Under the pieces are notes generated by a model. It made no database searches. It saw only the letters and a list, made by a program, of their open reading frames with translations, and had not been told where the DNA came from. The translations under genes were made by a program, and so were the position numbers. A DNA stretch of 64,000 nt from Mytilus trossulus (lineage: Eukaryota). The number at the start of each line of letters is the position of its first letter. Position 1 is the stretch's first letter. Below, in pieces: positions 431 to 44,974 of the stretch. Where the stretch lies: contig NC_086373.1 in the NCBI RefSeq assembly GCF_036588685.1, positions 38,006,001 through 38,070,000 of the forward strand. The letters run 5' to 3'.

Positions 431-675
431 GTTTTTGTATATGTTCAGGATACGGCGGTGTCCATTACCACACACCAGATGGTGCAGATCTACATTTTAT
501 GCGAACATCTAAATATAGCTTGTGGGAGTCTACATTTCCAAATGATCCGTGTTCATTCAGAGTCGAAACGAAAAACAAAAGAAGATATGGTTATTTGCTT
601 TCTTTCTATCCTCTGTTGATTGATTTATATATCATGAATACAACAATTAGTATACTGCAAAACGCTGTTACTATG
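431..675 (+). CDS. Exon: N-terminal half of VWD domain
   Basis: ttatttatAG acceptor; FCICSGYGGVHYHTPDG...KY...CSFRVETKNKRR...ISILQNAVTM matches the VWD pattern C-x-GDPHY-TFDG; donor ATG|gtaaat, phase 0. Confidence 0.8.
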
Positions 676-3600
676 GTAAATTTTGTTTGTTTGTTGATTA
701 TACCTGAATGTTATACCTTAATAATCAGTTGCACAAGACTTATTGATTGTATAGTTTATAACGCTCTCATGAAAAACGAGTTATCTAACGGTTAATTTTG
801 TTTTGTTTAATGTAACCTCCAACTTAAGGAAAAAAGTTGACTTTACTGATGTTCAAAAGTCATAACTAGACTGAGAAATAACAAACACGGGTTACAAACT
901 TAAACTGATGATATTATTTCTTTATAACAATAATGTTCAACTGAAGTTCTCATACCTTTTTACCGTTTAGGGAGTTGTTTCGTAAAATTCAACATTTAAG
1001 AAAAGAAATACATTCATGTAATGTCATCATAAAACAAAAAGACTTGAAAGGGTCAAACATAATTTTAAGAATTAACTAATTTCATTTTGAAAATTAAATG
1101 ATTTTAGGAAGTTAACTCTATTGAATCTATGGTATGAAACAAAAACAAAATATTTTTTACAAGGCAAGGATTGTCTCAGTTGTATATGAGAAAAAACAAA
1201 TGATTTTGTCATGTGATTGTGAATTACCAATTTTTTACTCTTTAAAAAGGGGGCAAAAGAAACTTAAGCAATATCCGCTTTCATCTTTGAAACATATATA
1301 TTCTATAACCAGTGGAAAAAACTAAGTTTGGAACTAAATTACACGAATGTCTGTACTATTAATGTTTCCGTCTTTTCGATATAACCACGAAAGTGTGGTA
1401 TACACTTTTAGATAACCCAATACGCGAGTTATTTAGTATGCACATATTACTGTCATTCATTAAATAAATATACAGATATGCATTGTCCTCATTTAAGATT
1501 GCAAAACCCCTATTCGAGAGAGATGTGTTCGAAACGAGCTCTGAAACTGTTTTTTTTTTGTTATTTTTTTTACCTTTTAATACACACAACTGCTTGTTGT
1601 TCTTCTACCTTAGGTAAATGGTATAGCCATAGAACTACCAACCGTATTGGTAAATAAATCAATGGAAATAACAAGAAGTGGGAGTTTCATCACAGCAGTT
1701 CATTCCAAATGTAACATACGGGTCCAGTTTGATGGTGATCACATGATCAATTTAAAGGTTTCTAAAAATACTTTTGCTGGAAAGTTAACTGGTCTTTGTG
1801 GGAACTGTAATGGGAATAAACAAGATGACTACCAAACCAAGTCCGTAACCGTTGTTTCTGAGAAGGAATGGGATGACAACAAAGTCATATCAAATAGTTT
1901 CAAAGATTCGGATGGTGGTGAACAACCATTAATTAAGTAAGAAAATGTACGAATAGAGCTTGTATTCCTTTCAGGGAATTTATATAATTTGACGTTTAGT
2001 ATCTTAATCATATTTAAGTAAAAAGTAGGATAAAAAAACGTTCTCCGAGAAAAATTGATAAAAGAAAGTCCCTAATCAAATATCAAAATCAAAACTTCAA
2101 ACATAACAACTGAATGGATAAAAACTGTCATACTGCTGAATTTGTATAGTAAACCATTCCTTTTAATTTATTGTTAGTCATAGCTGTATTAGTACTCGTT
2201 GGTGTAGAATTACATGGACTTTAATTACTTTACAAAACGATCACGTAAAAGATTTCAATCGCTGAAATAATTTAGAGATTATATTTTGATTTGATATTTT
2301 ACGAAGCAATTCAAAGCGATTGAAAAAGAGTTTATATATTTTTTGGATTGAATATTTTTATTAAGGTGGTATGGATGTCTTCCTTCATCTTGGATTGTAA
2401 AAAACAGAGAACCAATAGTCCAGATTTTCAATCTAGTTAGCAAAATTTGATGCAGGAATGTAGATATTTAATGTGAATTTACATTAAAATGAACCAATTC
2501 ATAAGAATATAACTTATAAATATTAAAATGTTTGCAAATGTTGATTAGTTTTGGTTGTTTAAAATAAATGAAATTAGCATTTTAAGGGGAGGTAACTCTA
2601 AAACAGTGCATTTTCTGAAGGATTCTATATGAAATTTTCCTATTTTGTATTTAAGCCGGAAAAAACGTACGGTGACCCTATCTTTTCTTTTGATATTCTC
2701 AAAGCAGTGTCTGAAAGCTATCTTTTCCTTAAGTATTTAACAATTCTCTCATGTTGTTTAATTTCTCATCAAAAAATGGTGTTTTTTCCTTTATATTCCA
2801 TACAAAATATGTAATTTTGTCACGTTCTGTAGCTTGAGGAAATGCACGGAGACCTATCATTTTTATTATATTTTTCAACATATACCAATAGTACTAGGTT
2901 TTGGCAAAGTATGAACAAATTCTATCATTTTTATTTTAGACTCCCATACCACCTTAAGGGGTCATATGATAAAGTTAGTAAATACCTTACATCGTGTTAA
3001 TGTTAAATCTTCTCAACAGTTTAGTTGGAGTTCATGACCAAAGTAAATGTTCAGTAAAAGACAAAGTTCGAGCTATGAAGGATGATCATTGCTGGTACCT
3101 TATGTCAGAATCCAGTCCATTTAAGATTTGTAAAGAATCAAAGAAAGTAGATTTTGCCAAGAAGTACTCTAGTTGTGAATTTGATGTTTGCTTCTCTGAT
3201 CACGAAAATTCCCATTGTCCAACATTACAGCATACAGCATATGAATGTAGTCAACATGGATATATGGTGAAATGGAGAAACTCAAATATTTGTCGTAAGT
3301 TTTTAACTGTTTTTAAACAATATTGTTTGCCAAAACAATTAATGACGTAGAGAGATATGTGCGTAACACCTCTGTACACAAGCTTTTTCATTTTATAGGC
3401 TCAAAATTTAAAGTGAATATTTCTTTTAATCAAATAGACCTGCTTAGAGACAGAAATTACCTTCATGTTGAAATGTCGCAATTGTCTTTGACCACAATGC
3501 CGTCATATTTTTCGAATATGACGTCACCAAATTTTTACTTACATACTAACATGGAGAACACAACAGTTGTCAAATAAAGAACAACATAATTATATTTACA

Positions 3601-6600: not shown

Positions 6601-9600
6601 AAATCTGACATGGGGGGGGGGGGGGGGGGTGAAATGTTCATTAGGTCAAGATCTATCAGCCCTGAAATTTTCAGATGAATCAAACAAACCATTTTTGGGT
6701 TGCTGCCACTTAATTGGTAATTTTAAGGAAATTTTGCAGTTTTTGGTCATTATCTTGAATATTATTATAGATAAAGATAAACTGTTAACAGCAAAAATGA
6801 TCAGCAAAGTAAGATCTACAAATAAGTTAATATGACCAAAATTGTCAATTGATCCATTAAGGGGTAATTGTCCTTTGATGACAATTTTTCACAATCTGTT
6901 CATCATATTTGCTAACTTTAAAAAATCTTCTCCTCTGAAACTACTGAATGGATTTGGATGAAACTTAGCATGATTGTTCCTTAGATTATCCTGCACAAAG
7001 TTTGTGCTTCGATTTTTGATCCGTCAAAAAACATGGCCGCCGTTACTTAAAATAGAACATTGGGCTCAAATGCAGTTTTTGGCTTATATCTCAAAAACTC
7101 CAGCATTTAGAGCAAATAAGACAAGAAGTTAAAGTATTTATTAGGTCAAGGTCTACCTGTTCTGAAATTTTCAGCCGAATTGGGTAACTTGTTTTTCAGG
7201 TATAATGCCCCTGAATTGATGATTTTAAAGAAATTTTGCAGTTTTTGGTTATTATCTTGAATATTACTATAGATACACATAAACTGTTATAGCAAAAATG
7301 TTAAGCAAAGTAAGATCTACAAATAAGTCAATTTGACCAAAATTGTCAAATGACCCCTTAAGGAGTTATTGCCCTTTAAAGATTTTTTTTCACAATTTGT
7401 TCATCATGTTGACTTACTTTTAAAAATCTTCTCCTTTGAAACTGCTGTATCAATTTCAGCCAAACTTAGGCTAAATGAGTTTCACAGTATCTAGTATGAA
7501 TTTTATATTTCATTTCCTTGTATGTCAAGAAACATAGCTCCCTCCTATGGCTTAAATAGAACATAGGAGAAAATGTTGTTTTTTTTTGCTTGTGAAGAAA
7601 ATAGGACGATTCAAAGAACATTTAGATAAATTGAAAAGCCAAAATAATCATTGATGAGAGATTTAACCAAAAAAATTAAGGTGAGCGATTCAGGCTCTTG
7701 AGAGCCTCTTGTTAAAATGAAATTTCGATCGCATAGCTTATTCCCCCACACTCAGAGAATTCTTACTATACGCATTAGATGAACATGTTATGCTTACAAA
7801 TTATCAACTAATAATAAAAATCTACCATGCATATTACAGCCCTTAATTGCACAGGGGAGTTTGTGTATAATACACCCGTTTCATGTACCAATACCTGTGA
7901 GAACCCAAGATCCACACAGAATTGTCAAGATCCACCTGTTGACGGCTGCACATGTCCAGATAAAACATATTTGAATGGCGGTAAATGTGTTACTATTGAC
8001 AATTGTGGATCCTGTGATCTAAAAATTGAAGGCATATCATCAAAATTAGCAGTAAGTGTTACTTTAATTAGTGTTTTTAATCAATTGAAAATTAAGATAC
8101 GTATGAACAAAACCTGCATTGATATATGTAGGTCTTATTCTAATAACTTAACGTTTGCCCTTGAAGTTAATGGTAATAAGTGAATATTTTTTCATATCAT
8201 AAAAGAGAAAACATTTTTTAAATTTCTCGTTTGCCATATATGTTACATGTGAAGCCGGATCTACCTACTCTCCCGGGCACCTGAGAACATCCCGGTTTTG
8301 GCTGTGTTATGTTGCTCAGTCTTTACTTGCTGTGTTTAATGTCTTTTTTCATATTTTGTCATGTTATTGTTATATTGTTTTCGACTTACAATGTATGAGC
8401 TTAAATATCCCTTTGGTATCTTTCGACTCTTTTTTGTCGTTTGTTTATGTCTGTCATAATTGTTTTCGTAACTTTTTTATAATTTAAGTTTTCGCTCTTA
8501 AAGTGCTTCCCATTTTGTTCATGTGCATTGCAATACACCTGAAAACAAAAACAAAAATATTTGTAAATAAATAAAGGCAACAGTAGTATACCGCTGTTCA
8601 AAACTCATAAAGTTGAAATAACTGTTCCATTAATAAAACGTATTAAATTCAAATATACTTTCTGATTGGGTACACATGCATACGGAGTTGATGAACTATG
8701 GTCTAAATTATACCGAAAAATAGGTTTACTTGTAATTACGTTCATTGTAAATCCTGGTATTGACATACCATATGTTTTCATTTATCAATAATTAATGCGG
8801 ATGTTCAATGAATCCCTTGAAACAGAAATTTCGAAAAATTCTGCCAATTAAATTGGAAAATATGATAATTGTTTCAAACATTGTAGGTAGGCGATTCCTA
8901 TCCAAAAGGTAACTGCACTGTGTCTCAAAAGTGTGACATAGTAAATAACAGCTTCCTATTAGTAACTATTCAACCGGTGAAAATCTGTGATGTTGATGAA
9001 TTGTGTACAGCAAACGACATTGGACTATATGATTGTACTAAGAATTCTAGTAAGTTTATTTTATTCAATTTTACAATCAGCTCTCAGTCTTCAAAGACAC
9101 TAATCTAATGAATTGACTTCATCAAAAAGTAAAATCACAAAAATACTGAACTCCGAGGAAAATTCAATCGGAAAGTCCCTAATCACATGGCAAAATCAAA
9201 TGACAAAACACAAAACAAATGGACAACAATTGTCATATTCCTGACTTGGTACAAGCAAATGGTTCCATAACGCTAAACCTCTCACGTGTACGACAGTTGC
9301 ATCAAATTTGATAAAATTGATAATGATGCGTGAACAAAACAAACAGACACAATAGGTAAAAATGTCACAAATAAAGGTAAAAAGTCTTTATCTTAAGCCA
9401 TATACAAATATAATATACAAATATAATACACGTTAAACACTTAAACAGAGAAAGACAAAGACTTTTACTAACACTTTTGTATCACATATTTGCCAACAGG
9501 CACTCAAATCAAAACAAGGAATACAATAAGTAGGTACGTTATAGTCAGCATATTATAATAATTATTATTACGCATGCAATCATATTGTTTAAGTTTCAAG

Positions 9601-10957
9601 TAAAAGCTATGAAACAAAATTATTCCAAAACATAAAGACAGTGAGCTAAGAAATGGATAAAGTAGTCTAAACTAGAAATGTGACAAACGGTTAATTAAGA
9701 ATAAGAGTTGTTGACCAATTGGTTTTCTAGACATAATATCTGTGCTGCAAATAATTTGACAGATGAAAAAAACACCTTAATCTTCTGATTGAGAGACTAT
9801 TAAAATAATAAAAAAAAAATAGAATTACAAATTTTGACCACATAAATACTAAGTATATTTAATTCTGAAAAATATTTTCGGTAAAAAGACACATCTATAA
9901 TACTAAAATTACGAGGTCCAATTTGTCAGCCGTCATCACGTGAAAACGACGAATCAAAGAATTCAACTTTATATACAACTTATATAGTACAAAGGTGTAG
10001 ATTAAAAATTACACCACTCCAGGCCCTTTTGTTTTCCACGTAATTAATATTGCTAATAATTAAGAAGTTCCAGGTCGAGTCCGATACCGATACCAATAGT
10101 ATAATCACCTGTTACTTATTACCTTATCTGTACGTTCTGCATCTGACAGGGGCACCGCCAAATAGTGTATGCAGGATTAATATGCTATATAAACGGGTCA
10201 TAATCACAGGGTTGACACTACTAAATTGTCAAATTGTTACCTATTGTAGTATTTTAATCAGTAAGACTTTCTAAGATAACAATACGAATACTAAAAATCT
10301 GGGCTAAAAATAAGGCGTATAGATATAGTTTTCAATTTGTTAGCGGGCATGAGTGACGTAAAACAGCGAATCAAAGAATTCAACTTAATATATAACTAAT
10401 ATAGGACAATGCTGTTGATTAAAAAATACTCCATTCCAGGACCTTTTGTTTTCCAAATAATTAGTATTCATCATGACCAATAATTGATAAGTTCCAGTTC
10501 GACGGGTTCAAACAGAAAGATTGGAAAGCAGAGAAAACTGTGTATCTTATAATCGGCATGATTTTATCAGATGACAATACTAATATTAAAGTAAAGCGCA
10601 TAGTTATATACTTTAATTCAGTCACGGACCCGCGATGGCACGGGTATGTTCTAATATCATATATAAGCCAGGCGGCATGTTTTATCCTATTTCAGGATTG
10701 ATTGGTGTCTGATTAGAAGATGAAAGCATACATATCAATCGTTAACCGAATTTTAGTTAAATCCTGTTAGTATCATTAAGTTGAAAAAATATAAGTTATT
10801 CTGAGAAAAGTGTACTGGACGCATAATATTTATTTATATTAAATGTAATTTTGATTCACATACACCACGGAATTTATATTTACTGCAACAAATGTGCATA
10901 TGTGCATATAAAGTATTTTAAAAAGGTTTCTTTCATCATATTGGCAATAGTCGATTG

Positions 10958-10992
<35 letters not shown>

Positions 10993-31900: not shown

Positions 31901-34900
31901 TTAAGATATTATTCATAAAGTGCAGATGGTATTTTTTTATTTTCATTTATTTTCTTAAAGAAATGCAGTACGAAATAACCGTGAACGCATACCCTTTTGA
32001 TGCCGTTGTAGTTTCTTATTACAAATTAGTACATGAATTGCATACAATTTACTTCTATGTGATAAATAAAGATATTTTGTATTGCAATTTTGGAATTGTT
32101 ATGTAAAAAATGATTTTATGCATCCCTTTAGAAGGTTTGACACCTAGTCTCTTTTGAACAGCTTAAGAACAAAGCCCGAAATCTTGCTGAAAGGTAATAT
32201 AAGTCATGTTTATGTAAAATTGTCTCTTGATTGATTTGTTTTGATTTCTTTTAACAATGACTTCACTTTCCAATATCTTTTCAGATTTACTGAATGTTAC
32301 TATTTCTCCAGCTTATACTGATGTCCTTGAGGGACAATCTCAGTTAATCACATGTAATGTAACTGGAATACCGACAGCTACGTCCATTACATGGTTGTTC
32401 ACACCAACTGGTTCTAATCAGTCACATTCCTTAAACATAAGCAATGCAGATGAATATTCTGGTGGCACCATTCACGATCCTTCCTTAACGGTACTAGATT
32501 TTCAATTGTCTGATGGCGGTACATATGAATGTTTTGCTACAAATGCTGTTGGAACAAGCAACAGCTCATCTTCAGTTCTTAGATTCATTCGTGAGTATAT
32601 ATAAGAAATGTCAATGTAAAGTGCTATATCAAATTCATATGTCGTAAAGAAAGGTATTTTACTTTGAACTCATTTCAGAAATCTCAATATATTTGGTTTG
32701 TTTGTCCCTTTTATCGTCTCACCATTACACATCATGTTAGAGAGAGACATTATGACTTACATTAAGTGATCATTTTTTATCTTTCAATCTAAAAAATACA
32801 AAAATGATGATTAAAGATTCTCGTTCCCAAAGACATTCCGATAGAAACAACCAAAGAAGTTTCGATAGAAACATTTTTCAAAGATTATAACAGGTTGAAA
32901 TATCCAGATACATTTCAGGAGTATTAAATCTTTTGAAGTCGTTTATCTAATTTTATGACAATAGTAAAACTGCAAATTTTACACATTTTATTTTGTTCTG
33001 AGCTCTGAATTTATTTTAAAGGGAATTCCAGTGAAAGTTTTACATATTCTTTTTATTTTTTTAGAGCACCTAACATTATCAGTAAATCCGTCAAATGGCA
33101 CTGCTATTTACGGAGACGTCTCGTTCACGATTGAGTGTACTATAATTGTGTTTTTCCGCGTTTCGTTTAGTATAGCGGGAAAATATTGTATTGACGGGTA
33201 CGGTTCGTATGAATATAACATAGGGTCACACTTAGTGACCAATGGGTATACTTTCTGGTAGTAAAGCCTAGGGTCACTTTCTAGCTGTCGTGCAACGAGT
33301 GAACACTCAACTTTAACTTTTGATGCACATGTATAAATGTTGATATTTTTACAGCATTTAATTTGCCAGTACACACATGTTTTATGTCTAGCTGAAGAAG
33401 GTTAAAAATTAGAACATCGGAAGTTGTCAAAAGATGTTATGACCACCAATGACATAGACTTATCCATGTTTTGATTTAGACAGGATCAAGAAATCTATAA
33501 TTTAGATATTTATTTTTCCGAAAGTAGTACAACACGCTGTTAAAATATTACTCATAAAGCGCAGATGGTATTTTTTTTATTTTCAAGTATTGTCTAAAAG
33601 AAACGCACTACGAAATAACCGTGTACGCATACCATTTAAATGCCGTTGTACAGTTTCTTATTACAAATTAGTACATGAATTGCATACACATTTACTTCTA
33701 TGTGATAAATAATGAATAGTTCTATTGCTATTTTACAATTGTTATGTTGAAAATGATTTAATGCATCCCTTTAGAAGAGTTGATGCCTAGTCTCTTTGTA
33801 ACAGTTTAAGAACAAAGCCCGAAATCTTGCAGAAATGCAATATAACTCATTTTTATGTAAAATCGTCTCGTGATTTGTTTGTTATGATCTCTCTTTAACA
33901 ATGACTACACTTTCCATTATCTTTTCAGATTTACAGAATGTTACTATTTCCCCAGCTTATGTTGATGTCCTTGAGGGACAATCTCACATAATCACAGGTA
34001 ATGTAACTGGAATACCGACAGCTACATCCATTACATGGTTGTTCACACCAACTGGTTTTATTCCGTCAAATGTCTTAAACATAAGCAATACCGATAAATA
34101 TTCTGGTGGCACCATTCGGAATCCTTCCTTAACGGTACTAGATTTTCAATTCTCTGATGGCGGTACATATGAATGTTATGCTTCAAATGCTTTTGGAACA
34201 TGCAACAGCTTATCTTCAGTTCTTAGATTTAATTCGTGTGTATTTATAAGAAATGTCAATGTAAAGTATTATATCATATTCATATGTAAAAAAAAACAGA
34301 ATTTACTTTGAATTCATTTCAGAAATCTCAATATATTCCGTTTGTTTGTTCCTTTTATCGTGTCAGTCTAGTCTGTCTACGGCAAATAATGCATAAATCT
34401 AAACAAATTGCAACAGAAATGGTTTCAACAGTTTTATAATACCAAGCATGACACAATCATATATTAAAAGTCTAAAAAAATCGTACGATCGGAAATCCCC
34501 ATTTTGGGCTAAAAACATTAATTTTAACCAAAAATCGATGAAAATTGTGAAGAAAAAAAAAAATCGGAATTTTAGCACTATGTTAGCCAAACAAATGTCA
34601 AAAACGAATTAAGATGACTAAAATAAGTACAAAGAACATTTCCGAAGTAAAATTTACAATCCAGATTAAGAACTTATTGGTAGAATTAACCCTTTTAATG
34701 ATAAAATCACAAAAAAATGCAAAAAAAACGATATATTCGAGATTCATATATGGCTGTTTTTAAACGTTTTATTTTGAAGGCAGCTTTAAACTAAAAACAT
34801 TAAACACAATTATTTACAATTATTTGCGAATAGGAAAAAGAAAACAAACAGTAATTTTATTGAAAATCTTTTTATCTATCATCGAAATTAGCTCAAAATT

Positions 34901-37900
34901 ACCCCTCCCCCCAAAATAAAAATGAAATAAATTTCTAAATAAAATGTATTAATGTTAGATTTGTTACAACATTCATTGAATTAATATCATAAACTGCCTA
35001 AACTGTTCAATAATTGATTACTTTGTTTTAACTTGGTTACTTTTGTTATCATCAAAAAGTATTAGAATAATAAATACAATTTCTGAAAAATTTATCTTTG
35101 AAAATATTTGATTTTGTTTTAATTTAACAAAAAAACAGACAATTTTTATATAAGTCTTCCTAATGTCTGGTTAAATGTCTCTGTAATGTACATGCATATT
35201 GATGCATTCACATATCGTCAAGTTCGGCGGCTTCTGTAATGTTACTTGTATTGGAACAATTCATTCCCCGACATTCCCCACATGCTGGGGAACAGTCTAT
35301 TCCGTGTTTGCGACATGAGCATCGTTTTGTGTCACAATTCAATTTGCAATTACATCTGATTATCCTAAGAAGCTTTTCGGGAGCCGATGGTAGTAATGCT
35401 CTAATTGGAAGCAATTTGTTGTCCTCAACATGCCAACCCCAGTCCTCTGGACCGTTGCTTCTAGGTTTTTCAAAACATCCGATTCACCCGCTTCTGAAGC
35501 TGACAGCTCTACAGAGGATAATTGAGAATATAATTCATCAATTTCCTTCATTTCAGTTGTTTGAAGGGTTGAATTGGGTTCTTCCAAAAGTTTAGATACG
35601 TCAATATTAAATATATCTGCAATCAACAAACAATAAAGTGCTGTATCCACCAACATGTGACCTCTAAACGCTCTAGCTACAGCTTTTCCGCTAAGGATAT
35701 GCGTGAATGCATTCGGAGCGTATATGAGATCTAACATCTCTTTCAAACCAGTATTACTCATAAGATTCCCTATTGAGCCGAGGAAGCTCATCTCTGTGTG
35801 GAATGGCCATAATCGTAAAAACATAGACTTCAAGTTGCTTCCTGGATTTTCGTTTTCAATAATTGATAAAGCTTTCGAATACAGAGGTTGATCAAAAGTC
35901 AAAATCGCTGGTATGTCATAACGCTTTGCTTGGTTGGCGACGAAGTTCAATGTAGAATAGATACATGTCATGTCCGAAGCATTCAAATCTATCATGAAAC
36001 TGATGATTTTCCTGGGTAGTCTCCCGTCTGAACCATCTGCATGAAGCCAGACCACATTGGTATTGGAAACTTTAAAGGCCAAATAATAACCGACAGCAGA
36101 TCAAGACGGAAAGTCTTATCCAGTGTGTTTAGGTTTTTTAACTCAAGCATAACTTAATTCAGCCATACGATCTGATTGAGGTTTGTAATATTTGATCTCT
36201 ATCTTTGCTAATGCCTTCATTTCATCAGTAGAAAAAGCTATTCTAGGAATGGGTTGTGTCTCTTCGTACCAGGCGTAATTCCAGCTATTATGCACATGCC
36301 ATGAAAAGTGTTGAGGTCATCTATCGTTCTTGTGTTGTGGTCAACGTTATCTGCTACAAATTGTACAAAGCTGTTGCTTATATCGCCTGGAAGGTCAACT
36401 CCTTGTACAGCTACAGTACTTGATTCAAACTTCTGGACTTCATAGTATGAGGAACAAAATCCTAAGCTGTTCAATGTGGACACAAGAAATCGTGAAGCGG
36501 AGTTGTGATGCACCTGTACTCCTAGACCGAGTTGAAGCGGTGTTATAAGTGCTCGAGGTCGTGAGGCTTGCATTACTGCTTGTCCTATGGAAGCTATTTT
36601 CACCGATGGATCTTTCTCAGAAAATATATTAGAAAGAAATGATAGCAGGCTTTCGGGTAAGTATGATAGATTATTATCAAATGATGCAATGTTGGCTGGA
36701 GTTGGATAGATAGACTTTGTGGTATTTACAGATCGGATGTCGCTTTTTATCAGTTTGACAGCTGCTCTGATTGTACGAATCACATAAAGTTTAACTTAGG
36801 GCGAAGAGATGAGTATGCGAGTTAACCATGTATCTATCTTTTATTCTTTTATAAAATCATATGGTCGCTAACAATCGATTCTCTACAAATAAAGAATAAT
36901 TTTACATAAGTAAAAATACATAAATTATAATAAGATGCACATGTTTAAGTATTCACATTAAACTAAACAAACAATAAAAACCATTTCATTCATGTATCAT
37001 AATTTCTCTCGTAAGTTAAATTACGTTTAAAATAATAATTAAAAGTTACGCATATTTCTAATAAATAGTACACAATGTTTTCTCTCTTTAAATAAGTTTT
37101 GATATAATAAAAAGATAGTATACATAAAAAGTTTCTTACCAACTTTAATCTGTCTAATAAAACAATGTGCATCCGTATGTTATCAAAATAAAGTCTAGAC
37201 GACGAAGCGCACATCAAAGGCGTAACGTCATAAAACAGAAACGGGAAAATGTGTTGTTCAAAAGAGCGCAACGTTACATTAGCGCTTTCATAAATAAATA
37301 GTAAAAACTGTGTTTCTTATTCTTACAAGAATAAATGAATATGTTAGTTAAACATTTAATAAATAATAAATTTATATTTAAAATTTGAATATTTCAAATC
37401 TTACACTCCCCACAATGAAATTACCAAATAATTTCTTAATACAGTTAGAAAAATATATTACAATTTTGTCACCAATAAAAAATAGTTCTATTTAGAACAC
37501 TCGAGTAAGCATAGTTTATTTGTGTCTCAAATCTGTGACTGACTAGTTTTGACCACACAGCTACGGATATGACCATGACGGCTCCTTGTGATCTCGACTA
37601 TTCTACCCGTTATCCTCTCTGTATATCATCAGCAACTAAAACAATATCGTCTATTTCAACATCTTGTTGTTCCCTCTGCCATTTGCTTCTTTGCTGCGGC
37701 TTTCTTTCCCCTCCTTTTGTTTCCTCTTTTCTCGCTTTTTTGGATGGAGACCTTGCCCTTTTCTTTCCCCTTCGTGGGTTCTTGGAACGAGCACGTTTTG
37801 CTGCCTTTCCCGGGGAGGCGAATGCTGACCTGCTCCTGCTCCTTCTGTTGGACATGGACTTGGATGAACGATGAGTTGGGCTTGGCATCCGTCTTGCTGG

Positions 37901-40900
37901 GTGATATAAGACTGACTCCGTCATTTTCATAGCCTCTGTATCATCTGTAGACAAGCAATTCTTATCTTCTCGTGCTCTATCATCATTTATAACATTTGAC
38001 GCATGCATATCTTCAATAGGACCACGAATAGCCCATCCGAGGCGTGAGCGAATTGCATATGGTTGGTTTTCGTTACCGGACCTTACTTCTAGCGGAATGT
38101 GAGCGTTAGGTGAATCTGTACCTATTAACAACATGACCTCGGTTAAATCAGTAGAGGGTATCTGTATATCGGCTAAATACGGCAATTTTCTTATATCTAC
38201 ATTTTCTGCGGCAGATCGAGCAGAAATTGGAAGCTTCTTAACTGACCAGACCTTTTTTAACGACACGTTATCATTTCCGTCAATAGCTTTTACTTGTAAG
38301 TCAACTTCTTGACCGTGAATTGTACTACCAGAAGAGCTAACAGTAGACATCTCGAAAGTGACCGGCTTGCTGGCTATATTTAATTTCTGAAGTAATCGTT
38401 CATCACATAAAGTTTTATCTGCTCCGTCATCTAGCAAGGCAAATGTTTTGCAAGAGTTACCGTTCTGACCCTTAACGAGGACAGGAACAATTCCTAAACA
38501 GTTCTTAATCATAGAACCTTTAGTAGCTGCGCAATTTACTGACTGCTGAGTAGCTGCATGATCAAAACCGGGCTGAGACCAACTATGCAATAAAATATTA
38601 TGCTTAACATTACAGTCAGATACAGTGCATGCTTTTGATTTTCTACAATTGTTAGCAAAATACTTCCCTTTTAAACAATTATAACACAATTTTAACATGC
38701 GTACTAATTTATACCTATCATCTAAACTCATTGACTTAAATTTGCTACAAGATGTCAAATCTACACATGTACCTGTACAACATTTACATTTTTGCTCATA
38801 TTTAGCTGTGTTATCTAAACTTTGAGTACTTAACGTAGAAACCTTACTATTAACTGTATCATTATTATGATGTTTACTTGTAAAAACCCTATTATCAGTC
38901 TTGTTCTGATTGTTTTCTCTACAAATATCGTACCCATACATAGAACTAGCAATGCGTGATTTTTCGTCTACAAATTTTGCTAAGTCAGAAAAACGAGGTT
39001 CTCTACCAGACTCGCTAATTGAATGAGCAATATCGACCCATCTTGTTCTCATATGCATTGGAAAGCGTTTAACAATACACCTTAAATTTTCAGAATTATC
39101 AATATCTGAATTAAAACCTAACTGAGACAATGTGATTTCACATTTTTGCATTTCTAATGCCAATTTAGATAAACCTTCAATATCTGACGCTTTAATCTGA
39201 GCGCCGTACACTAATTTTTCAATAAATGATCTAGCAATTACATGTGGCCTACCGTATCGGGAGTACAATATTGCCCTAGCACGTTTGTAACCCTCATCAG
39301 AATCTAATAATACACAATCTTCTATACAACACTTTGCTTCACCTCTACAGTACTGAATTAAATAACTCAGTCTCAAACTATTATCACTTATTCTACCTTC
39401 AATGTTTGTCTCAAAGTTCCGTATAAACTTACTATAGTCTAACGGAGTTCCATTAAAAGTTAATAATTCTGGTTTTGGCTAATTAAACCCTTCGTGAAGT
39501 GTAGATGCTAGGCGTTGAAAAGCCGAATCTATGCTGGAAACACTTACATCCGAAAATCCAGACTGAGCACTGATTCCCTGTGTACTGTTATTAATGTTCA
39601 TCTTTGGTTTATCAGTTGCTGCAGTTTGTCCGGAAAGAGAGTTCATTTTAATACACTTTTCACTCGCAGGAACAGAGCTCTGTAATGTTTGCGAGACTGT
39701 TGCGAAATGTTCCGAATGTTCACGATTCCACTGGTATTATCTGTGTCTTCTTCCACTGCTTCTTGCCACACTGATTCTTCGATATTTGCCTCTTCCATCT
39801 CGGATAGTTGATTAAATACCTGTTGTCTAAATTTAATTTCTATTTGTGCACGCTCTAGTTCATGCTGTTCTGATAATTTCCTGAGTTTAAGTTCTGCGAT
39901 TAGCCGCTTAGCTTTGGCACTGCGAAATCTAGATTGTGATGAAACTGAAGATCGTGAACTCAAACTGCTTTCAATTGAAACTGTATCACTTTCTTCGGGT
40001 ATTTCCTCTTCATGCGATTTTTCACTCGCGATATACTGAGAAAATCTATCCCGGAATTCTACAAAGTTCTCATGACAACGTTCATAGTTCACTTCCAAAT
40101 TTGCTATAACTTCTGATTGTGTACACAAATCTAAACACTGTAAGTGTGCTAACTTAAATTGTTCAAACCTTTCACATAACTTTGAATATAATTGTTTTGC
40201 ATGTTCCACGTTCTCATATGAAATTAAATTCTTCTCCAATTCTTTGTACAATTTAGTAAGCTGCGCTAAATTCGTACTACGAGTCCGTTTTGCATCACTG
40301 AAGTCCAGACAGTCTTCTTTCCGTCTATCGGTAGCCATTTTTTTAACAAATATTCAAAATTCGGCACAATTTTAGAATTTCCTCCTCTCCAGAGTTGAGA
40401 ATTGTACGAATCACATAAAGTTTAACTTAGGGCGAAGAGATGAGTATGCGAGTTAACCATGTCTCTATCTTTTATTCTTTTATAAAAATCATATGGTCGC
40501 TAACAATCGATTCTCTACAAATAAAGAATAATTTTACATAAGTAAAAATACATAAATTATAATAAGATGTACATGTTTAAGTATTCACATTAACCTAAAC
40601 AAACAATAAACACCATTTCATTCATGTATCATAATTTCTCTCGTAAGTTAAATTACGTTTAAAATAATTATTAAAAGTTACGCATATTTCTAATAAATAG
40701 TACACAATGTTTTCTCTCTTTAAATAAGTTTTGATATAATAAAAAGATAGTATACATAAAAAGTTTCTTACCAACTTTAATCTATCTAATAAAACAATGT
40801 GCATCCGTATGTTATCAAAATAAAGTCTAGACGACGAAGCGCACATCAAAGGCGTAACGTCATAAAACAGAAACGGGAAAATGTGTTGTTCAAAAGAGCG

Positions 40901-43900
40901 CAACGTTACATTAGCGCTTTCATAAATAAATAGTAAAAACTGTGTTTCTTATTCTTACAAGAATAAATGAATATGTTAGTTAAACATTTAATAAATAATA
41001 AATTTATATTTAAAATTTGAATATTTCAAATCTTACACTGATCAAAGCTCTCTTTTCGTCATCTGGATTTAAATCGTTTGGTCTCTGATAATAGTCCTGA
41101 AGAATACAAGTCACTGTTTCACGTAGAGTTACAACACTTTTTCTACCTGGTATGTCTGTAATAATGATTTCGTCTCCAAAATGTTCCAATCTTTTCTTTA
41201 AATACATCTGACTATAAGCATTCCCATCACACATCTCGTCCAAGATCTGATATGGAAATCTGTTCGTCGTCATGATGTTTAAGGAAGTCGACTATTTTGT
41301 AGAAGCCGTCTTCTTGCAAAGTTGGCCTTCCTCTTTGGTTTTTCAGGCTTTGCGTCTGGTGATATGGGAGAACGGAATACAGGAGTGTTTTTGCACGTGC
41401 GGAAGTTTACACTACATGCCTGGTGATAAACAGCATCCGCTGCTTGGAGGTCGCTTACGCTCTCCAGTCTTCCGCGAACCTCATCTGCCCAATCTTCATT
41501 CCGAAGATCACAAGCATCTTGTATGCGACTCTCAAAATCATCAGTTCGAACCTGAAATACATTTTTGTCTTTTTTCTTGGAGTCTGTTGCTTCATTTCCA
41601 CAGAATAAACAATGTTGTTTAAAATCAAAATGGGACTTTGATCGTAATTTTGGAGTATTTGTATTAATTTCTCTCAGAACAAGTTTTTCTTTTTTGTATG
41701 TCTTTATGTCATTTGGATTGGTATATGTTTTCCTGCAGAGTTGATGGACAAAATTACCCTTATGCGGACAAACAGTCTCCTCTTTCCTGGCTAGCTTTGA
41801 TGATTCCAAGACAACCTTTTTGTCGCAATTTGATCAGTGTTGTTTGGTGGTCATCTTTTAGGCACACAATACATTTCTTCATAGTATAGATGTAGCTGAA
41901 AAGAAATAGTACACAATCATTTGTTGTTACATATTTAATTTTTATATTTGTCATATAACATATCAATACACATTAAAATATTATTCAGAACAACAAATAT
42001 AAACAACATCGACTCTTAATGAATAATGTTTTCTTGTCCGTGTGATGTTTCTTTTTTTAGTGTGTCTATACACTGTAATTCATTTGTCCATTTCTCAACT
42101 TCTTATGAATTCTAGCACTGCTGAAGATAATGAATTATTTGAAAAGTGTCAAAAAGGGCGACAAGAGAATCAATAGGCTTAAATCGCGTCCGAGAAAACG
42201 AAAAGGACATTAAGACAAACAAGACAAACTATACAAAGTACACACAGAAACGAGCATCTTGAACTTAAGAAGTACAATTTTATTGTAAAGCATTAAAAAA
42301 AGTATACTATGTTCGATGTTTTCCCTACTTGGAAATTTTCGATTGTGTTTTATTGTAACCTATTCCGTACATTTGTTTAGTTGACTATTCATTTTGAATT
42401 TGGTTTGAATTGACTTTTGATGGAACAAGATACGCAATCAAATATTTTTGACACGACTGTGAAAAAATACTTTCAATGAAATAGGCAATGCAGAAAAATA
42501 TAATATAGTACCTGATTTAGAAATTATTCGTGTGCTTAACAATTAGCACAGTGACTGTGGTTAGCTCCAATAAAATCATGACGCTAAATCGGACATAGGT
42601 TTCTTCAAGTGAAAGCTGAAATAGAATTACAAAATAGTTATTTTCGACAATAATTCATTAAAAAAGGAAGGAAACAATTATTTAAAATTATTTATTTGAA
42701 GAAAACGCAATAGAAGATAAGAATAAATGCTTTGGCTATAGTAATTAGTTCAAAATCGACAAAATTGCAATTTTTACTGTCCATTTTTGTTAATTTGGCG
42801 TTCCATACTTTTTTGTTTCCGTTAGGTACGAGTCTTACTACGTCCCTTTAAATTATTTTTATTGTTAAATTTTGGACTTTATTAATTGAAATTTAATTGA
42901 TTTTATGTAAAGGTAGTTGATTTTATTTATTTTCTTTGAACTTAACAAAAATATAGTGATCTTTGTCGTTTGACCTGCGTCAAGAACTTTCGTCTAATTC
43001 ATTTCTTGACGCATTTCCGAATATCTAAATACACGTAAAACATAAGTGTATGTTAAAAAAACACTTACCAGCATACTTTTATAATAACATAAATTTATGT
43101 AAGCGATTCTTTCAGTGATATCATCTTCTCAGTTGGTTTCTATAAATTCACATATGTAAGAGTCTTCTCCCTTTGTCAATATGGCGGACCATTTCTGACA
43201 TGAATCGGCAGGCACGTCACCGATATTTTTATTTTCAATTTTCACCGATTTCCGACCGTACGATTTTGTTAGACTTTTTTAACGGTAATGTTCTATGATA
43301 ATCTCATATGATATATAAAAAATCTTTTCTGTTGCAATTTGTTTAGGTTGATTCTGAAGACAGACTAGACTACTACACATTATGTCAAAATGAGACATTA
43401 AGACTTACATTAAGGTGGTATGGGAGTCTAAAATAAAAATGATAGAATTTGTTCATACTCTGCCAAAACTTAGTATCTATTGATATATGTTTAAAAATAT
43501 AATAAAATTGATAGGTCACCGTGCATTTTCTCAAGCTACAGGACGTGACAAAATGATAAATTTTGTATGGATTATACAGGGAAAAACACCATTTTGTGAT
43601 TAGAAACTAAACACAATGATAGAATTGTTAAATACTTGAGGAAAAGATAGCTTTCTGACAATGCTTTGAGAATATCAAAAGAAAAGATAGGGTCACCGTA
43701 CGTTTTTTCCGGCTAAAATACAAAATAGGAAAAGTGCATAAGAATCCTTCAGAAAATGCACTGTTTTAGAGTTACCTCCCCTTGAAATGCCAATTAATTA
43801 ATTTTTTTAAACAACCAAAACTAATCAACATTTGCAAAAATATTAATATTTGTAGGTTATATTCTTATAAATTGGTTCTTTTAAATGAAAATCACATTAA

Positions 43901-44926
43901 ATATCTGCATTCCTGCATCACATTTTGCTAACTTGATAAAAAATCTGAACCTTTGGTTCTCTGTTTTTTACAATCCAAGATGGAGGAAGACACCCCTACC
44001 ACCTTAAGTGATCATCTTTATCTTTCAATTAAAAGAGACAAAAATGATGGTTAAAAATTCGGGTTTCTAGATATATTCCGATAGAATTGTTATAAAAGTT
44101 ACTAAAATTATAATTTTATACGCCATACACGCGTTTCGTCTACATAAGACTCATCAGTGACGGTCAGATCCAAATAGTTGGAAAGACAAACAAGTACAAA
44201 GTTGAAGAGCATTGTGATAAAAGGTTGAAAAATCCAGATAACTTCAAGGAGTTTAAAGAATTCTGAAGTAGTTTACCAATTTTAATGATAAAATATCTGA
44301 AATAAATTCTTATAATTTATAAGTCACAGTTTATACTGATAGTGCACCAAGGTAAGTACTATACATGACCACATTTTTGAAGTAGATATAAAATAAACAA
44401 GTTCTATTTCATTTCATTGCTTATGTGGACCTAATTATGTAAATCCAAATCACTTGTCGAAAAATAGACAATACATAATGAAACGTTTATTTTGAACAGA
44501 TTTATTATAAAACTGCAAATTTTAAATAGATTTTTTTGTTCTGAGTTCTGAATTTAATTTAAAGGGAATTTCTGTGAAAGTTTTGCATATTTTTTTTATA
44601 TTTTAGAGCTCCTAACAATATCAATAAATCCGTCAAATGGCACTGCTATTTACGGAGACGTCTCGTACACAATTGAGTGTACTATAAGTGGCATTCCCCA
44701 GGCTACATCATGGTCTTGGTTAAAGAGACTAATCACAGGCGGCGAATTGACAACAATATCTGCTGGAAGCAAATATACTATAGTAAATTCTGCCACTCTT
44801 CCGCATTTAACTATCAACAGTATAGTTGAGGATGACGAACAGGACTATTTTTGTCAAGGGACCAATGATGCAGGAACACAAATCAGTACAAGTGCAAGGC
44901 TAATTGTTAATGAAGATCAGTTCTAA
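431..44926 (+). CDS. Multi-exon gene (5' end outside window): FCGBP/zonadhesin/mucin-like VWD-C8-TIL module followed by ~21-22 tandem Ig-like domains
   Basis: Exons 431-675, 1614-1936, 3020-3294, 7840-8051, 8887-9049, then Ig exons A/B. All have AG/GT boundaries, and junction phases (0,2,1,0,1,1...) join into one open frame. The 3' end is uncertain (B11, A12 and B12 are damaged). Confidence 0.8.
1614..1936 (+). CDS. Exon: C-terminal half of VWD domain
   Basis: ccttAG acceptor; VNGIAIELP...VQFDGDH...KLTGLCGNCNGNKQDD (VWD GLCG motif); donor AA|gtaaga, phase 2. Confidence 0.88.
2365..2953. mobile_element. Non-autonomous TTAA DNA transposon (Kolobok-like MITE)
   Basis: TTAA|GGTGGTATGG...CCATACCACC|TTAA; a second, inverted copy lies at 43414-44003. 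RR...YY termini with TTAA TSD fit Kolobok. Confidence 0.85.
3020..3294 (+). CDS. Exon: C8 domain
   Basis: caacAG acceptor; C..L...SPFKIC...CEFDVC...HCPTLQHTAYECSQHG..VKWRNSNIC; donor C|gtaagt, phase 1. Confidence 0.88.
4077..5265 (-). mobile_element. Tc1/mariner deletion derivative
   Basis: TA TSD and ~40-bp TIRs (TACTGAGTGCCAATGAAAACGCA...). Decayed transposase on - strand 4963-4277: MPGLSDNQR..LGM, GSVND, QDRYI, ALREKWNKFP..I...S.PRRC....RG.NT, with stops and frameshifts; no DDE core found. Confidence 0.85.
5286..7713 (+). mobile_element. Non-autonomous Helentron (HINE/DINE-1-like) with internal ~500-bp tandem repeats
   Basis: 5' TTTTTAGCTCACCTG..GTGAGCT palindrome, (GTC)n microsatellite, repeat starts at 5401/5914/6414/6927/7428, 3' subterminal IR AGGTGAGC plus hairpin AGGCTC-TTGA-GAGCCT ending CTTGTT. 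Confidence 0.85.
7840..8051 (+). CDS. Exon: TIL (trypsin-inhibitor-like Cys-rich) domain
   Basis: ttacAG acceptor; PLNC...SCTNTCENP...CQDPPVDGCTCPD...GGKCVTIDNCG; donor GCA|gtaagt. Confidence 0.88.
8245..8435 (+). mobile_element. Degenerate SINE-like repeat (Nin-domain-like core)
   Basis: GGATCTACCTACTCTCCCGGGCACCTGAGAACATCCCGGTTTTGG...GTTGCTCAGTCTTTA resembles the molluscan Nin-SINE core as I recall it; unverified. Confidence 0.45.
8887..9049 (+). CDS. Exon: Cys-rich TILa/VWC-like module
   Basis: ttgtAG acceptor; VGDSYPKGNCTVSQKC...ICDVDELCTANDIGLYDCTKNS; donor A|gtaagt, phase 1, compatible with Ig exon A1. Confidence 0.78.
9120..9375 (+). repeat. Dispersed repeat with a related copy at ~2035-2140
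   Basis: Shared motif CTCCGAG..AAATT...AAAGTCCCTAATCA.AT..CAAAATCAAA...ATGGA.AA.AA.TGTCATA.T.CTGA.TT.GTA in both places. Confidence 0.6.
9894..10654 (+). mobile_element. Non-autonomous Helitron
   Basis: A|TCTATAATACTAAAAT 5' end, 3' GC hairpin (ACCCGCGATGGCACGGGT) then CTAA|T; internal ~420-bp-spaced duplication; homologous 3' end at 47142-47242 ending CTAG|T. Confidence 0.7.
12465..12770 (+). CDS. Ig-like exon A1
   Basis: tttcAG/GTgagt, 306 nt, phase 1-1; ITC...ITW...PSLTV...DGGTYECFATNAVG (I-set-like). Confidence 0.9.
13237..13545 (+). CDS. Ig-like exon B1
   Basis: ttttAG/GTcagt, 309 nt, phase 1-1; TIECTISG...WSW...HLTINSI..DDEQDYFCQGTNDAG. Confidence 0.9.
14432..14737 (+). CDS. Ig-like exon A2
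   Basis: Copy of A with intact splice sites (LDFK variant). Confidence 0.9.
15206..15514 (+). CDS. Ig-like exon B2
   Basis: Copy of B with intact splice sites. Confidence 0.9.
16400..16705 (+). CDS. Ig-like exon A3
   Basis: Copy of A with intact splice sites (LDFQ). Confidence 0.9.
17175..17483 (+). CDS. Ig-like exon B3
   Basis: Copy of B, TIGC variant, intact splice sites. Confidence 0.9.
18369..18674 (+). CDS. Ig-like exon A4
   Basis: Copy of A, same LDFK variant as A2. Confidence 0.9.
19145..19453 (+). CDS. Ig-like exon B4
   Basis: Copy of B with intact splice sites. Confidence 0.9.
20340..20645 (+). CDS. Ig-like exon A5
   Basis: Copy of A, same variants as A3. Confidence 0.9.
21115..21423 (+). 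CDS. Ig-like exon B5
   Basis: Copy of B, same TIGC variant as B3. Confidence 0.9.
22310..22615 (+). CDS. Ig-like exon A6 (core Trp->Leu)
   Basis: Copy of A; TGG>TTG at 22417-22419. Confidence 0.88.
23086..23394 (+). CDS. Ig-like exon B6
   Basis: Copy of B; donor GTtagt. Confidence 0.88.
24279..24584 (+). CDS. Ig-like exon A7
   Basis: Copy of A with intact splice sites. Confidence 0.9.
25054..25362 (+). CDS. Ig-like exon B7
   Basis: Copy of B (KYIIV variant). Confidence 0.9.
26247..26552 (+). CDS. Ig-like exon A8
   Basis: Copy of A (TIQNP variant). Confidence 0.9.
27022..27330 (+). CDS. Ig-like exon B8
   Basis: Copy of B (QGAND variant). Confidence 0.9.
28348..28653 (+). CDS. Ig-like exon A9
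   Basis: Copy of A with intact splice sites. Confidence 0.9.
29123..29431 (+). CDS. Ig-like exon B9
   Basis: Copy of B (WLKR, NNIV, DEKD variants); donor GTtagt. Confidence 0.88.
30316..30621 (+). CDS. Ig-like exon A10
   Basis: Copy of A (TPTG, QSH, IHDP variants). Confidence 0.9.
31092..31400 (+). CDS. Ig-like exon B10
   Basis: Copy of B; donor GTtagt. Confidence 0.88.
32285..32590 (+). CDS. Ig-like exon A11
   Basis: Copy of A, same variants as A10. Confidence 0.9.
33065..33261 (+). pseudogene. Truncated Ig exon B11
   Basis: Acceptor and first ~27 codons (to TIECTI) are present, then unrelated sequence from 33146. The frame stops at TAG 33259-33261. Confidence 0.85.
33929..34235 (+). 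pseudogene. Degenerate Ig exon A12
   Basis: Diverged A copy: first Ig Cys lost (ITG), 1-nt insertion just before the donor (307 nt), donor weakened to GTgtgt. Confidence 0.8.
36772..37405 (-). repeat. 3' LTR
   Basis: Direct repeat of 40403-41037; about 6 substitutions and 1 indel counted by eye. Confidence 0.95.
37490..40338 (-). pseudogene. BEL/Pao gag-protease polyprotein remnant with integrase C-terminal tail
   Basis: Coiled-coil gag N-terminus; PKPELLTFNG/RLSYLIQYC.GEAK/RYG (DUF1759-like); CYNCL and C..CNVKH..LLH knuckles; protease ALLDDGAD and LGWAIRGP; tail QRSKW..DIVLV..RSCVVKT..KLCLLE. A frameshift near 39650-39700 and an in-frame TAG at 39479-39481; RT, RNaseH and integrase core are absent. 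Confidence 0.9.
37686..37913 (-). pseudogene. PL-III: Captured copy of sperm protamine-like protein PL-III (phi-1)
   Basis: ATG at 37888: MPSPTHRSSKSMSNRRSRSRSAFASPGKAAKRARSKNPRRGKKRARSPSKKAR. This closely matches the Mytilus PL-III N-terminus as I recall it, and a shifted frame gives the C-terminal RRGKKAAAKK. Confidence 0.85.
40403..41037 (-). repeat. 5' LTR
   Basis: Direct repeat of 36772-37405, upstream of the gag ATG at 40338. Confidence 0.95.
43414..44003. mobile_element. Kolobok-like TTAA MITE (inverted copy of 2365-2953)
   Basis: TTAA|GGTGGTA...TACCACC|TTAA; the other array units show the empty site GACTTACA-TTAA-GTGATC. Confidence 0.9.
44121..44162 (-). ncRNA. Minimal type I hammerhead ribozyme motif (Penelope/retrozyme-type repeat fragment)
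   Basis: Minus strand CGTCA-CTGATGA-GTC ttatgta GAC-GAAA-CGCGTG-TA-TGGCG: complete core, stem I CGTCA/TGGCG, stem II GTC/GAC, short quasi-palindromic stem III. Confidence 0.7.
44607..44926 (+). CDS. Ig-like exon B12 (donor lost; possible terminal exon or pseudo-exon)
   Basis: Intact acceptor and Ig motifs; GGAG|GTCAG has become GAAG ATCAG; reads through to TAA at 44924-44926. Confidence 0.65.
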
Positions 44927-44974
44927 GTTTAGCTGATGAAGTAAATAAGAACTACATTCTAATGACATTCAACG

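Follow-up and report, generated by a model that had tools for sequence, protein, structure and literature searches.

A Mytilus trossulus gene predicted to join one FCGBP-type D assembly to a 22-domain immunoglobulin rod

The window analysed here is a stretch of 64,000 nucleotides of Mytilus trossulus DNA (NC_086373.1, positions 38,006,001 to 38,070,000). On its forward strand lie five VWD-C8-TIL-E exons (E1 to E5), followed by a tandem array of alternating Ig-A and Ig-B exons (Table 1). RefSeq already has an automated model of this gene, XP_063433761.1 (P0120; Mytilus trossulus, 3040 aa, 'hemicentin-1-like'), in which a Pfam scan gives the order five TSP1-like repeats, VWD-C8-TIL-E, 22 I-set stretches and a C-terminal EDQF. 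The model has the same head-to-Ig join as the reading given here; it places the B1 acceptor upstream, where a contig from public run X1 has it at 13237, and takes in only the first 23 codons of A12. The name is a misnomer, since it reflects the Ig count only. The 5' start of the gene lies upstream of the window, and neither the five TSP1-like repeats found there nor the loss of the GDPH motif (below) figured in an earlier, sequence-only reading of the locus. No publication on the gene was found, by topic or via six accessions, in a body of literature that mostly excludes subscription papers.

Table 1. Features of the head and of the Ig array (positions in the window)
Feature	Position	Strand	Basis or remark
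E1, N-terminal VWD half	431..675	+	Pfam VWD 1.3e-4, weak, just under cut-off
E2, C-terminal VWD half, GLCGNCNG motif	1614..1936	+	Pfam VWD 1.5e-14
E3, C8 domain	3020..3294	+	Pfam C8 3.2e-10
E4, TIL domain	7840..8051	+	Pfam TIL 2.5e-7
E5, Cys-rich E/TILa-like module, phase-1 donor	8887..9049	+	alignment
Predicted intron 5, head to Ig array, with high-copy repeats	9050..12464	+	no Thr/Ser-rich exon found
Tandem array, unit ~1969 bp (A and B with the intron between them, plus 850 bp of intron ahead of A and 48 bp after B)	11627..44962	+	
Ig exon A1, 306 bp, phase 1-1	12465..12770	+	Pfam I-set; spliced ends in contigs
Intact A exon starts after A1	14432, 16400, 18369, 20340, 22310, 24279, 26247, 28348, 30316, 32285	+	
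Ig exon B1, 309 bp, phase 1-1	13237..13545	+	Pfam I-set; spliced ends in contigs
Intact B exon starts after B1	15206, 17175, 19145, 21115, 23086, 25054, 27022, 29123, 31092	+	
B11, exon cut after ~80 bp	33065..33148	+	sequence
A12, degenerate: lacks its first Cys and has 1 additional base ahead of the donor	33929..34235	+	sequence
~9 kb element, terminal inverted repeats and nested LTR element, inside last intron	34365..43371	-	
B12, terminal Ig exon	44607..44926	+	donor GT changed to AT; reads into TAA

The head exons have AG/GT ends throughout and compatible phases (1-0, 0-2, 2-1, 1-0 and 0-1). FCGBP is the best solved relative of the module (best PDB match, 1.2e-114). The closest protein models are uncharacterized ones from M. 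edulis (XP_071157973.1) and M. galloprovincialis (XP_076105716.1), P0014 and P0015 below. E5 is identical to these at 39-41 of 54 positions, and the corresponding part of another relative, P0016, lines up with the ends of FCGBP modules. GDPH is the self-cleavage site motif of FCGBP D modules. E1 has GGVH in its place and a Ser at one conserved Cys; in the alignment, the partner Cys is also missing at the E2/E3 junction, and the head Cys count is even (28). E1 resembles module 1 of P0014 (75/81 identical) more than module 2 (51/81). A contig of run X1 covers E4 with 14 differences.

E1 to E5, ten A-B pairs, A11 and the terminal B read through 2664 codons with one stop, the final one, and all 27 exons are free of stops and frameshifts. 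The sequence-only reading had described a VWD-C8-TIL head on about 21-22 Ig domains with no transmembrane exon, and it is upheld: the reading frame of the five head exons continues through 11 intact exons of each Ig type, A and B, giving 22 domains (A1-A11, B1-B10 and the terminal B), and the top hydrophobic 19-mer of the RefSeq model scores 1.39, compared with 3.48 in a transmembrane relative. Transmembrane, further Ig or CBM_14 exons gave no match in 44927-64000 (tblastn, E<=1), and no signal peptide is evident in P0120, whose 5' end may be missing. Both Ig exons are recognised as I-set (A 6.4e-11, B 8.9e-8). B12 ends in VNEDQF and a stop, where relatives end in VNGGQF. A polymerising C-terminal Cys tailpiece was considered and rejected; 7 of 11 copies have the B read-through that would supply it (..QVC), and the terminal exon lacks it.

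The Ig Cys are kept in all 22 intact copies, while A6 has lost its core Trp (Trp>Leu). Five sequons (NVT, NVT, NQS, NIS and NSS) are kept in 11/11 intact A copies, and B has a single NGT in 11/11; the description of the domains as sequon-rich does not extend to B (1 per 103 aa). The five A sequons are borderline against a shuffle of the domain's own composition (P=0.056) and many by comparison with homologous domains, where at least five occur in 2/69 and none in 34/69. An A-B pair is predicted to fold as two beta-sandwich domains (pLDDT 94.2), with the last strand of A (96-101) running directly into the first of B (103-109). A fold search returned generic tandem Ig matches, the best being titin Z1Z2 (TM 0.56).

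Each internal B-A intron joins a 48 bp terminal-type flank to 850 bp from the intron preceding A1. This unit junction, which is read directly, shows that the array expanded from a single unit. The units are 3-64 bases apart in a nested pattern and are not identical copies. Indel sites number 0 in Ig exons and 13 in introns (naive P=0.008), and variable sites 29/615 in exon against 96/1354 in intron (P=0.046); the Ig exons are under constraint. Within the array, pN/pS is 0.60, which is not distinguishable from 1 (P=0.19).

A-to-B splicing was observed in a contig from run X1 (12770>13237 joint, GT..AG), and exact B-to-A joints in contigs from runs X1 and X17 (two studies), splicing being read solely from intron-precise joints in runs whose nature was guessed. 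Back-splicing of a single pair could also yield a B-to-A joint. The A exon in the contig of run X17 has a variant that, within the window, occurs in A12 alone. Contigs from X15 and X16 extend into introns and are DNA-like. Among the 15/58 joints listed (4/21 runs, 7700-13580), the E5-to-A1 joint was not found, and no listed contig of the same scope spans intron 5; the head exons are thinly covered. These observations are neutral for the join. The direct E5-A1 join is a prediction, and the placing of head and Ig domains in one gene is sustained by the open frame and phases, the independent RefSeq model and the models of two sister species.

P0014 and P0015 resemble the window gene in combining a GDPH-less D assembly and a C-terminal Ig pair in one protein. 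They differ from it in having two D assemblies, three Thr/Ser-rich spacers and two internal TSP1 domains, and in ending, according to the gene models, in a single A-B pair. Their Ig pair is identical to that of the window gene at 95-97/101 (A) and 91-95/102 (B) positions. At the spot of the head-array join, the sister models have 1420 extra residues; neither the spacers nor the TSP1 block of P0014 has a match in the window better than E=5 (tblastn). Sequon density is alike in the Ig repeats and the relatives' spacers (2.96 vs 3.12 per 100 aa). Given this absence of a spacer match and the similar sequon density, the earlier suggestion that Ig repeats replace a mucin spacer is supported as a comparison; but the relatives already have the pair as a cap at their C-terminus, and the array is an amplification of it. 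The head is identical to P0014 at 355/405 positions and the product of the Kv1 channel gene at 474/480, and hence the head may be a paralogue or under relaxed constraint. In the tree, the branch to the window copy is 0.11 and the sister-species end branches are 0.01-0.02. The loss of GDPH is common to the window copy and both sister species and is therefore old.

More distant relatives occur in M. californianus (XP_052064788.1, 'IgGFc-binding protein-like') and M. coruscus (CAC5407900.1). Like the window gene, these have a TSP1 block followed by VWD-C8-TIL-E modules (45-80% identity exon by exon), and they lie on the Kv1 record; unlike it, they have 3-4 modules, GDPH in all of them and no Ig domain. 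A long PTS region and a CBM_14 domain (1.6e-11 at the P0013 end) close the M. californianus protein. The stem to these two relatives is long (0.52), so they may be a sister paralogue. The Kv1 gene and the relatives are on records of equal size in four species, and the accession spacing between them is 8 in M. coruscus and 17 in M. galloprovincialis.

The nearest relatives of the Ig pair are bivalve multi-Ig membrane proteins of the P0020 and P0001/P0009 families (A 53-62%, B 53-55%), which are named hemicentin or peroxidasin homologs. P0020 has the A-B order of the window gene, but these proteins have a signal peptide and a TM segment, lack VWD and carry 0-1 sequons in their A-like domains. 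A search of long proteins with the Ig pair gave 89 matches, with VWD listed in none. Among 269 proteins, a profile of 7 modules gave 9 matches, all from the window gene's family, and VWD and Ig occurred together in only three models, those of the window gene and its two closest relatives. At least 20% of the length was repeated by 20-mers in 26/227 proteins of >=600 aa, a set holding many isoforms of one oyster gene; 6/26 were from the window gene's family. Homogenised Ig arrays also occur in other bivalve proteins.

Several alternative explanations were weighed. The locus could be a decaying or near-neutral rearranged copy, from which the spacers were deleted, in which the Ig unit expanded by drift and whose transcribed product does little. 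This would fit the loss of GDPH and of one Cys pair, the long branch, the non-significant pN/pS, the broken B11 and A12, the transposon at the 3' end and the Trp>Leu change in A6. It is nevertheless considered unlikely, as the 27 exons are intact, indels are confined to introns, Ig Cys and sequons persist in 22 copies and both sister species also lack GDPH. A role as a gamete or egg-coat species-recognition protein, with the homogenised array as a repeated binding site, is proposed by analogy with sea-urchin EBR1 and abalone VERL, whose repeat pattern it resembles, and would agree with the fast divergence inside the species complex. No sequence relationship to either is in evidence, however, and the pattern is not diagnostic because other bivalve Ig proteins show it too; the dense A sequons would also be more in keeping with a spacer than with a binding surface. 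This role is regarded as quite improbable.

The two remaining alternatives concern the join itself. High-copy repeats occupy intron 5 at about 9100-9400 and 9900-10650, just where the sister models have their extra residues, and could have made the assembly drop spacer exons and a second D assembly from a gene that is really M. edulis-like, with or without the array. Against such an artefact, which is judged very unlikely, the array units are distinct with nested differences, the record is of chromosome scale (113 Mb), and the exons differ from the sister models in 12% of residues, so that they are not a fragment of the same allele. It is less probable still that two adjacent transcription units are present, the head ending alone and the array belonging to another gene. 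B-like exons do occur in an unrelated partial model with SAM domains (P0002/P0012, 71%), and gene predictors can therefore wrongly chain such exons; but E5 has a donor with no in-frame 3' exon found nearby, A1 has an acceptor with no start or signal exon found upstream, and head and Ig domains are joined in models of three species.

The reading preferred here, which is held to be somewhat probable, is that of one expressed gene in which a single D assembly of FCGBP type, together with the TSP1 block, is predicted on a 22-Ig rod. The growth of the array from one unit and the kinship of the Ig pair with bivalve multi-Ig membrane proteins point to a young, exon-shuffled and probably secreted mucus or matrix glycoprotein, with recent tandem duplication of one pair as the likely origin of the rod. 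The ancestor would have been a mucin-like TSP1-(VWD-C8-TIL-E)n-PTS gene adjoining the Kv1 channel gene, with a chitin-binding end in M. californianus. This would have given rise to a fast-evolving copy without GDPH and one disulfide, which may then have acquired a new C-terminus by capturing two phase-1 Ig exons of the bivalve multi-Ig membrane protein family. In the genome of the window, some 1420 residues (the spacers and the second D assembly) would then be missing, and the Ig pair would have been amplified about 12-fold via unequal crossing-over, with the latent donor of the B exon reused.

Family membership makes a mucus or matrix role plausible; immune or gamete-coat recognition is no more than a proposal by analogy. 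The head might bind non-covalently to other matrix or mucus components, and the stalk, with its 66 sequons, might act as a hydrated stiff spacer in the role of the lost Thr/Ser-rich segments. If each Ig domain measures 4-4.5 nm, the stalk would be about 90-100 nm long. In the boldest version, which we consider improbable, a chitin-tethered mucin swapped its tail for a receptor-derived Ig pair within a few million years, and M. trossulus then dropped the spacers and built a 22-domain species-specific recognition array (for gamete, self or microbe), which would make the locus a candidate, like EBR1, for a species barrier in hybrid zones of Mytilus.

Should the history hold, the locus would offer a still readable, stepwise rise of a new extracellular architecture among close species, in which the tail was exchanged, the self-cleavage motif and then the spacers were lost, and the pair was amplified 12-fold while its junction stayed preserved. 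The database name 'hemicentin-1-like' is corrected as well. If the array were species-specific and expressed in gonad or mucosa, it would be a candidate that can be tested in a hybridising group already studied in depth; otherwise, it would be one further bivalve domain shuffle.

Several known classes were compared with the gene, which does not qualify as a hemicentin, an FCGBP or a gel-forming mucin. Hemicentin has an N-terminal VWA domain and C-terminal EGF and fibulin-type modules; the 22 I-set stretches would fit, but Pfam shows VWD, TIL, TSP1 and Ig and none of these modules. Zonadhesin has a TM segment. It is also described as carrying MAM domains (PMC4948705), and neither feature was found. 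A SCO-spondin-like protein would combine VWD-C8-TIL with TSP1 and LDL-receptor A (LDLa) repeats; TSP1 is present, while LDLa is absent from the Pfam scan. FCGBP, gel-forming mucins and VWF share the D assembly type with the window gene, which differs in its one D assembly, lack of GDPH, TSP1 head and Ig stalk. FCGBP is described with an N-terminal FCGBP_N domain and D-module self-cleavage (PMC4948705); the VWD-C8-TIL-E order fits, but in place of many GDPH-bearing modules there is a single one with GGVH and 0 GDPH, and Pfam does not report FCGBP_N in P0120, a model possibly short of its 5' end. Gel-forming mucins are described as ending in a cystine knot and as having spare Cys through which they polymerise (PMC9169620). 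The window gene has one assembly rather than at least three, no PTS exon match in the window, an Ig domain at the C-terminus with no cystine knot by Pfam, and an even number of head Cys. In VWF, folded VWA domains stand at the site of the MUC2 PTS region (PMC9169620, PMC6109156), which provides a precedent for a spacer swap. The vocabulary of VWD-C8-TIL and TSP1 recurs in flatworm ap2, sea star Sfp1 and an oyster larval IgGFc-binding-like protein (PMC8621496, PMC6337334), for which the passages cited, unlike the window gene, mention no Ig array. EBR1 is described with a conserved TSP1-containing N-terminal part and species-specific C-terminal repeats that are 97-100% identical (PMC13672419), and VERL with 22 repeats, of which repeats 3-22 are >95% identical (PMC2704960). 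Both resemble the window gene in their homogenised arrays, which are species-specific in these two proteins, and egg expression has been shown for both, gamete-recognition repeat proteins being marked by such expression and by species-selective binding of sperm proteins; their domains are unlike those of the window gene (CUB-TSP1 in EBR1, repeats without introns in VERL). There is precedent both for folded domains standing where a mucin spacer would be (VWF) and for homogenised Ig arrays in bivalves.

The gene is interrupted and lies on the + strand, in a window with a GC content of 30-37% across most of its length (see table). Pfam matches in the head exons are, in exon order, VWD, VWD, C8 and TIL; for the fifth exon, the matching region in P0016, a relative, aligns along FCGBP module ends. 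The intact Ig exons are A1-A11, B1-B10 and the terminal B. The domain counts and sequons of the sequence-only reading were found to be correct, though its description of the Ig domains as sequon-rich applies to A and not to B. The unusual VWD-C8-TIL head on an Ig stalk, which it had proposed, is supported by the open frame, the phases, Pfam and a matching RefSeq model. An exact search with the ORF of an A exon retrieved a cluster containing this model, M. trossulus XP_063433761.1 ('hemicentin-1-like'), whose record has the same length as that of the window's Kv1 protein. Its head is identical letter for letter, as is the E5-A1 join, and it has 22 I-set stretches; judged by these matches, it is the window's gene. 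Beyond the 5' edge of the window the model adds five TSP1-like repeats (by inspection; Pfam passes one stretch). No signal peptide is evident in it, nor a transmembrane segment. RefSeq thus already contains this architecture, as an automated model whose name misleads.

Coordinates of the gene and of other features in the window
Feature	Position	Strand	Remarks
Head exons E1-E5	431-675, 1614-1936, 3020-3294, 7840-8051, 8887-9049	+	canonical ends, compatible phases
600-bp repeat	2361-2957 (intron 2), 43410-44007 (last intron)		91% identical, copies inverted
Tandem units, intron 3	5386-7469		~515 bp, 81-90% alike
Ig exons A (306 bp) and B (309 bp), alternating	from 12465	+	both phase 1-1; unit ~1969 bp
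B1 start	13195-13237		upstream acceptor in RefSeq model versus 13237 in X1 contig
A6	22310-22615	+	Leu replaces core Ig Trp
Insertion, B8-A9 intron	27660-27805		~140 bp (intron 1017 bp versus 885)
9 kb element	34365-43371		after A12, before terminal B; terminal inverted repeats
Nested LTR element	36770-41039		639-bp LTRs (36770-37407, 40401-41039) 98.9% identical; minus-strand ORF with DUF1759
Terminal B	44607	+	AT where GT donor expected; frame runs into stop
Satellites (two)	48043-49182, 51543-52730		38-mer; 20/21/30-mer, region partly self-inverted
Kv1 (Shaker-type) potassium channel gene	57846-59291		intronless, 481 aa; synteny anchor

The ORFs of the 9 kb element lie on the minus strand, are broken and match nothing in Pfam; one of them has a Cys-rich, CXC-like end. 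The nested LTR element, presumably BEL/Pao-like, is a young insertion.

The gene's nearest relatives among proteins, M. edulis XP_071157973 and M. galloprovincialis XP_076105716, share the order D assembly, Thr/Ser-rich spacer, TSP1, second D assembly, spacer, TSP1, spacer, A, B. These sister models have one A and one B and the C-terminus GGQF; a TSP1 block is N-terminal in the M. edulis model, and the M. galloprovincialis model begins within the first VWD. E1 matches their first module at 75 of 81 positions and the other at 51 of 81. Residues ~878-2300 of the M. edulis protein, the repeated D module excepted, had no match in the window. GDPH modules number four in M. californianus XP_052064788, which ends in a PTS region and CBM_14, and three in M. 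coruscus CAC5407900; Ig domains occur in neither. All four relatives are on records equal in length to their own species' Kv1 gene record, suggesting that they share a locus. A tree of 10 modules grouped the five GDPH-less ones in one clade (100/100; stem 0.52), with a branch of 0.11 to the window copy. Kv1 differs by ~1% between this genome and the sister species, and by 5% in the comparison with M. californianus and M. coruscus; given this long branch and a head 12% different from that of M. edulis, the window copy may be an orthologue or a paralogue. Both Cys of one pair were lost from the head along with GDPH, leaving 28, an even number. In the partial M. galloprovincialis models P0002 and P0012, a B-like exon (71% identical, end NGGELFVI) comes after SAM domains, either a further mobile exon copy or a prediction chimera.

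The closest other Ig domains belong to membrane proteins of Mytilus that have between 6 and 37 of them (A 53-62%, B 53-55%). Among their 69 distinct A-like domains, 34 have no sequon and two have at least five; the relatives with a single pair already have all five A sequons (one of them as NKS). Similarity to the unit extends from 850 bp upstream of A1 to 48 bp past the terminal B. Every internal B-A intron consists of these two flanks joined together, the outcome predicted for duplication of a single unit. Units U1-U10 differ pairwise by 3-64 per ~1970 bases (paired as U2/U4, U3/U5, U7/U8 and U9/U10) and the outer array flanks by 8-9%, a disparity suggesting that the first duplication is the older event and the growth recent. 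Homogenisation covers introns as well as exons, with indel sites at 13 places in introns versus none in exons, and fewer variable sites in exons; pN/pS within the array is 0.60, not significant. A Glu>Gly change is common to B3 and B5. AlphaFold2 (10-row alignment) predicted an A-B pair as two Ig sandwiches without linker (pLDDT 94.2, pTM 0.73).

The gene product is, on balance, probably a secreted mucus or matrix glycoprotein, whose head would bind non-covalently and whose stalk would take the place of the relatives' Thr/Ser-rich spacers. Sequons per 100 aa are 2.96 in the stalk versus 3.12 and 2.23 in the spacers, and the Pro/Thr/Ser share is 0.30 versus 0.33-0.36. Covalent polymerisation, described for MUC2 and VWF (PMC9169620), is unlikely, since the GDPH means of cross-linking is lost and there is no cystine knot. 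A decaying copy would be the reading closest to the damage late in the array, where B11 is truncated and A12 lacks its first Cys and carries an extra base, but it is an unlikely one: the head joined to ten pairs, A11 and the terminal B gives 2664 codons with no internal stop. Of the 71 sequons in this frame, 66 are in the Ig part. A gamete recognition protein, recalling the repeat patterns of VERL (PMC2704960) and EBR1 (PMC13672419), is less probable still.

Contigs from four of 21 public runs, none recorded as RNA, were compared with 7700-13580. A contig of 579 bases from run X1 reads B-A-B with two differences in each of three pieces; its A-B joint omits exactly the GT..AG intron and its B-A joint is at the predicted sites, the latter recurring in X17, a run of a different study. 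These joints show that the Ig exons are spliced; a back-splice could be an alternative source of the B-A joint. The X17 contig holds an A variant that within the window is present only in A12, so other haplotypes or species may also have arrays. Repeat counts of EBR1-type arrays vary between assemblies (PMC13672419). Misassembly of the window appears slightly more remote than a gamete role. Least probable is a pair of separate genes, head and Ig array: their join is predicted, and the RefSeq model contains it.

Membership of the hemicentin, FCGBP, gel-forming mucin, SCO-spondin or zonadhesin families failed in each case on the features tested. The VWD families were defined in PMC4948705, the main text of which, for the terms searched, makes no mention of Ig fusions. 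PMC6109156 reports a gel mucin of a tunicate that carries a chitin-binding domain, and states that mucins and VWF diverged by different central modules, a precedent for spacer swapping. Proteins with VWD-C8-TIL and TSP1 occur in aquatic adhesives and mucus (PMC8621496, PMC6337334), and in sponge aggregation factors VWD and other domains have been shuffled in phase 1 (PMC5400394). In the literature searched, no paper on the window's gene was found; its architecture, in RefSeq as an automated model, is, as far as sequence can tell, real and unusual, with a traceable recent history. Further models from mussels, scallops and oysters also contain homogenised Ig repeats like those of its array.
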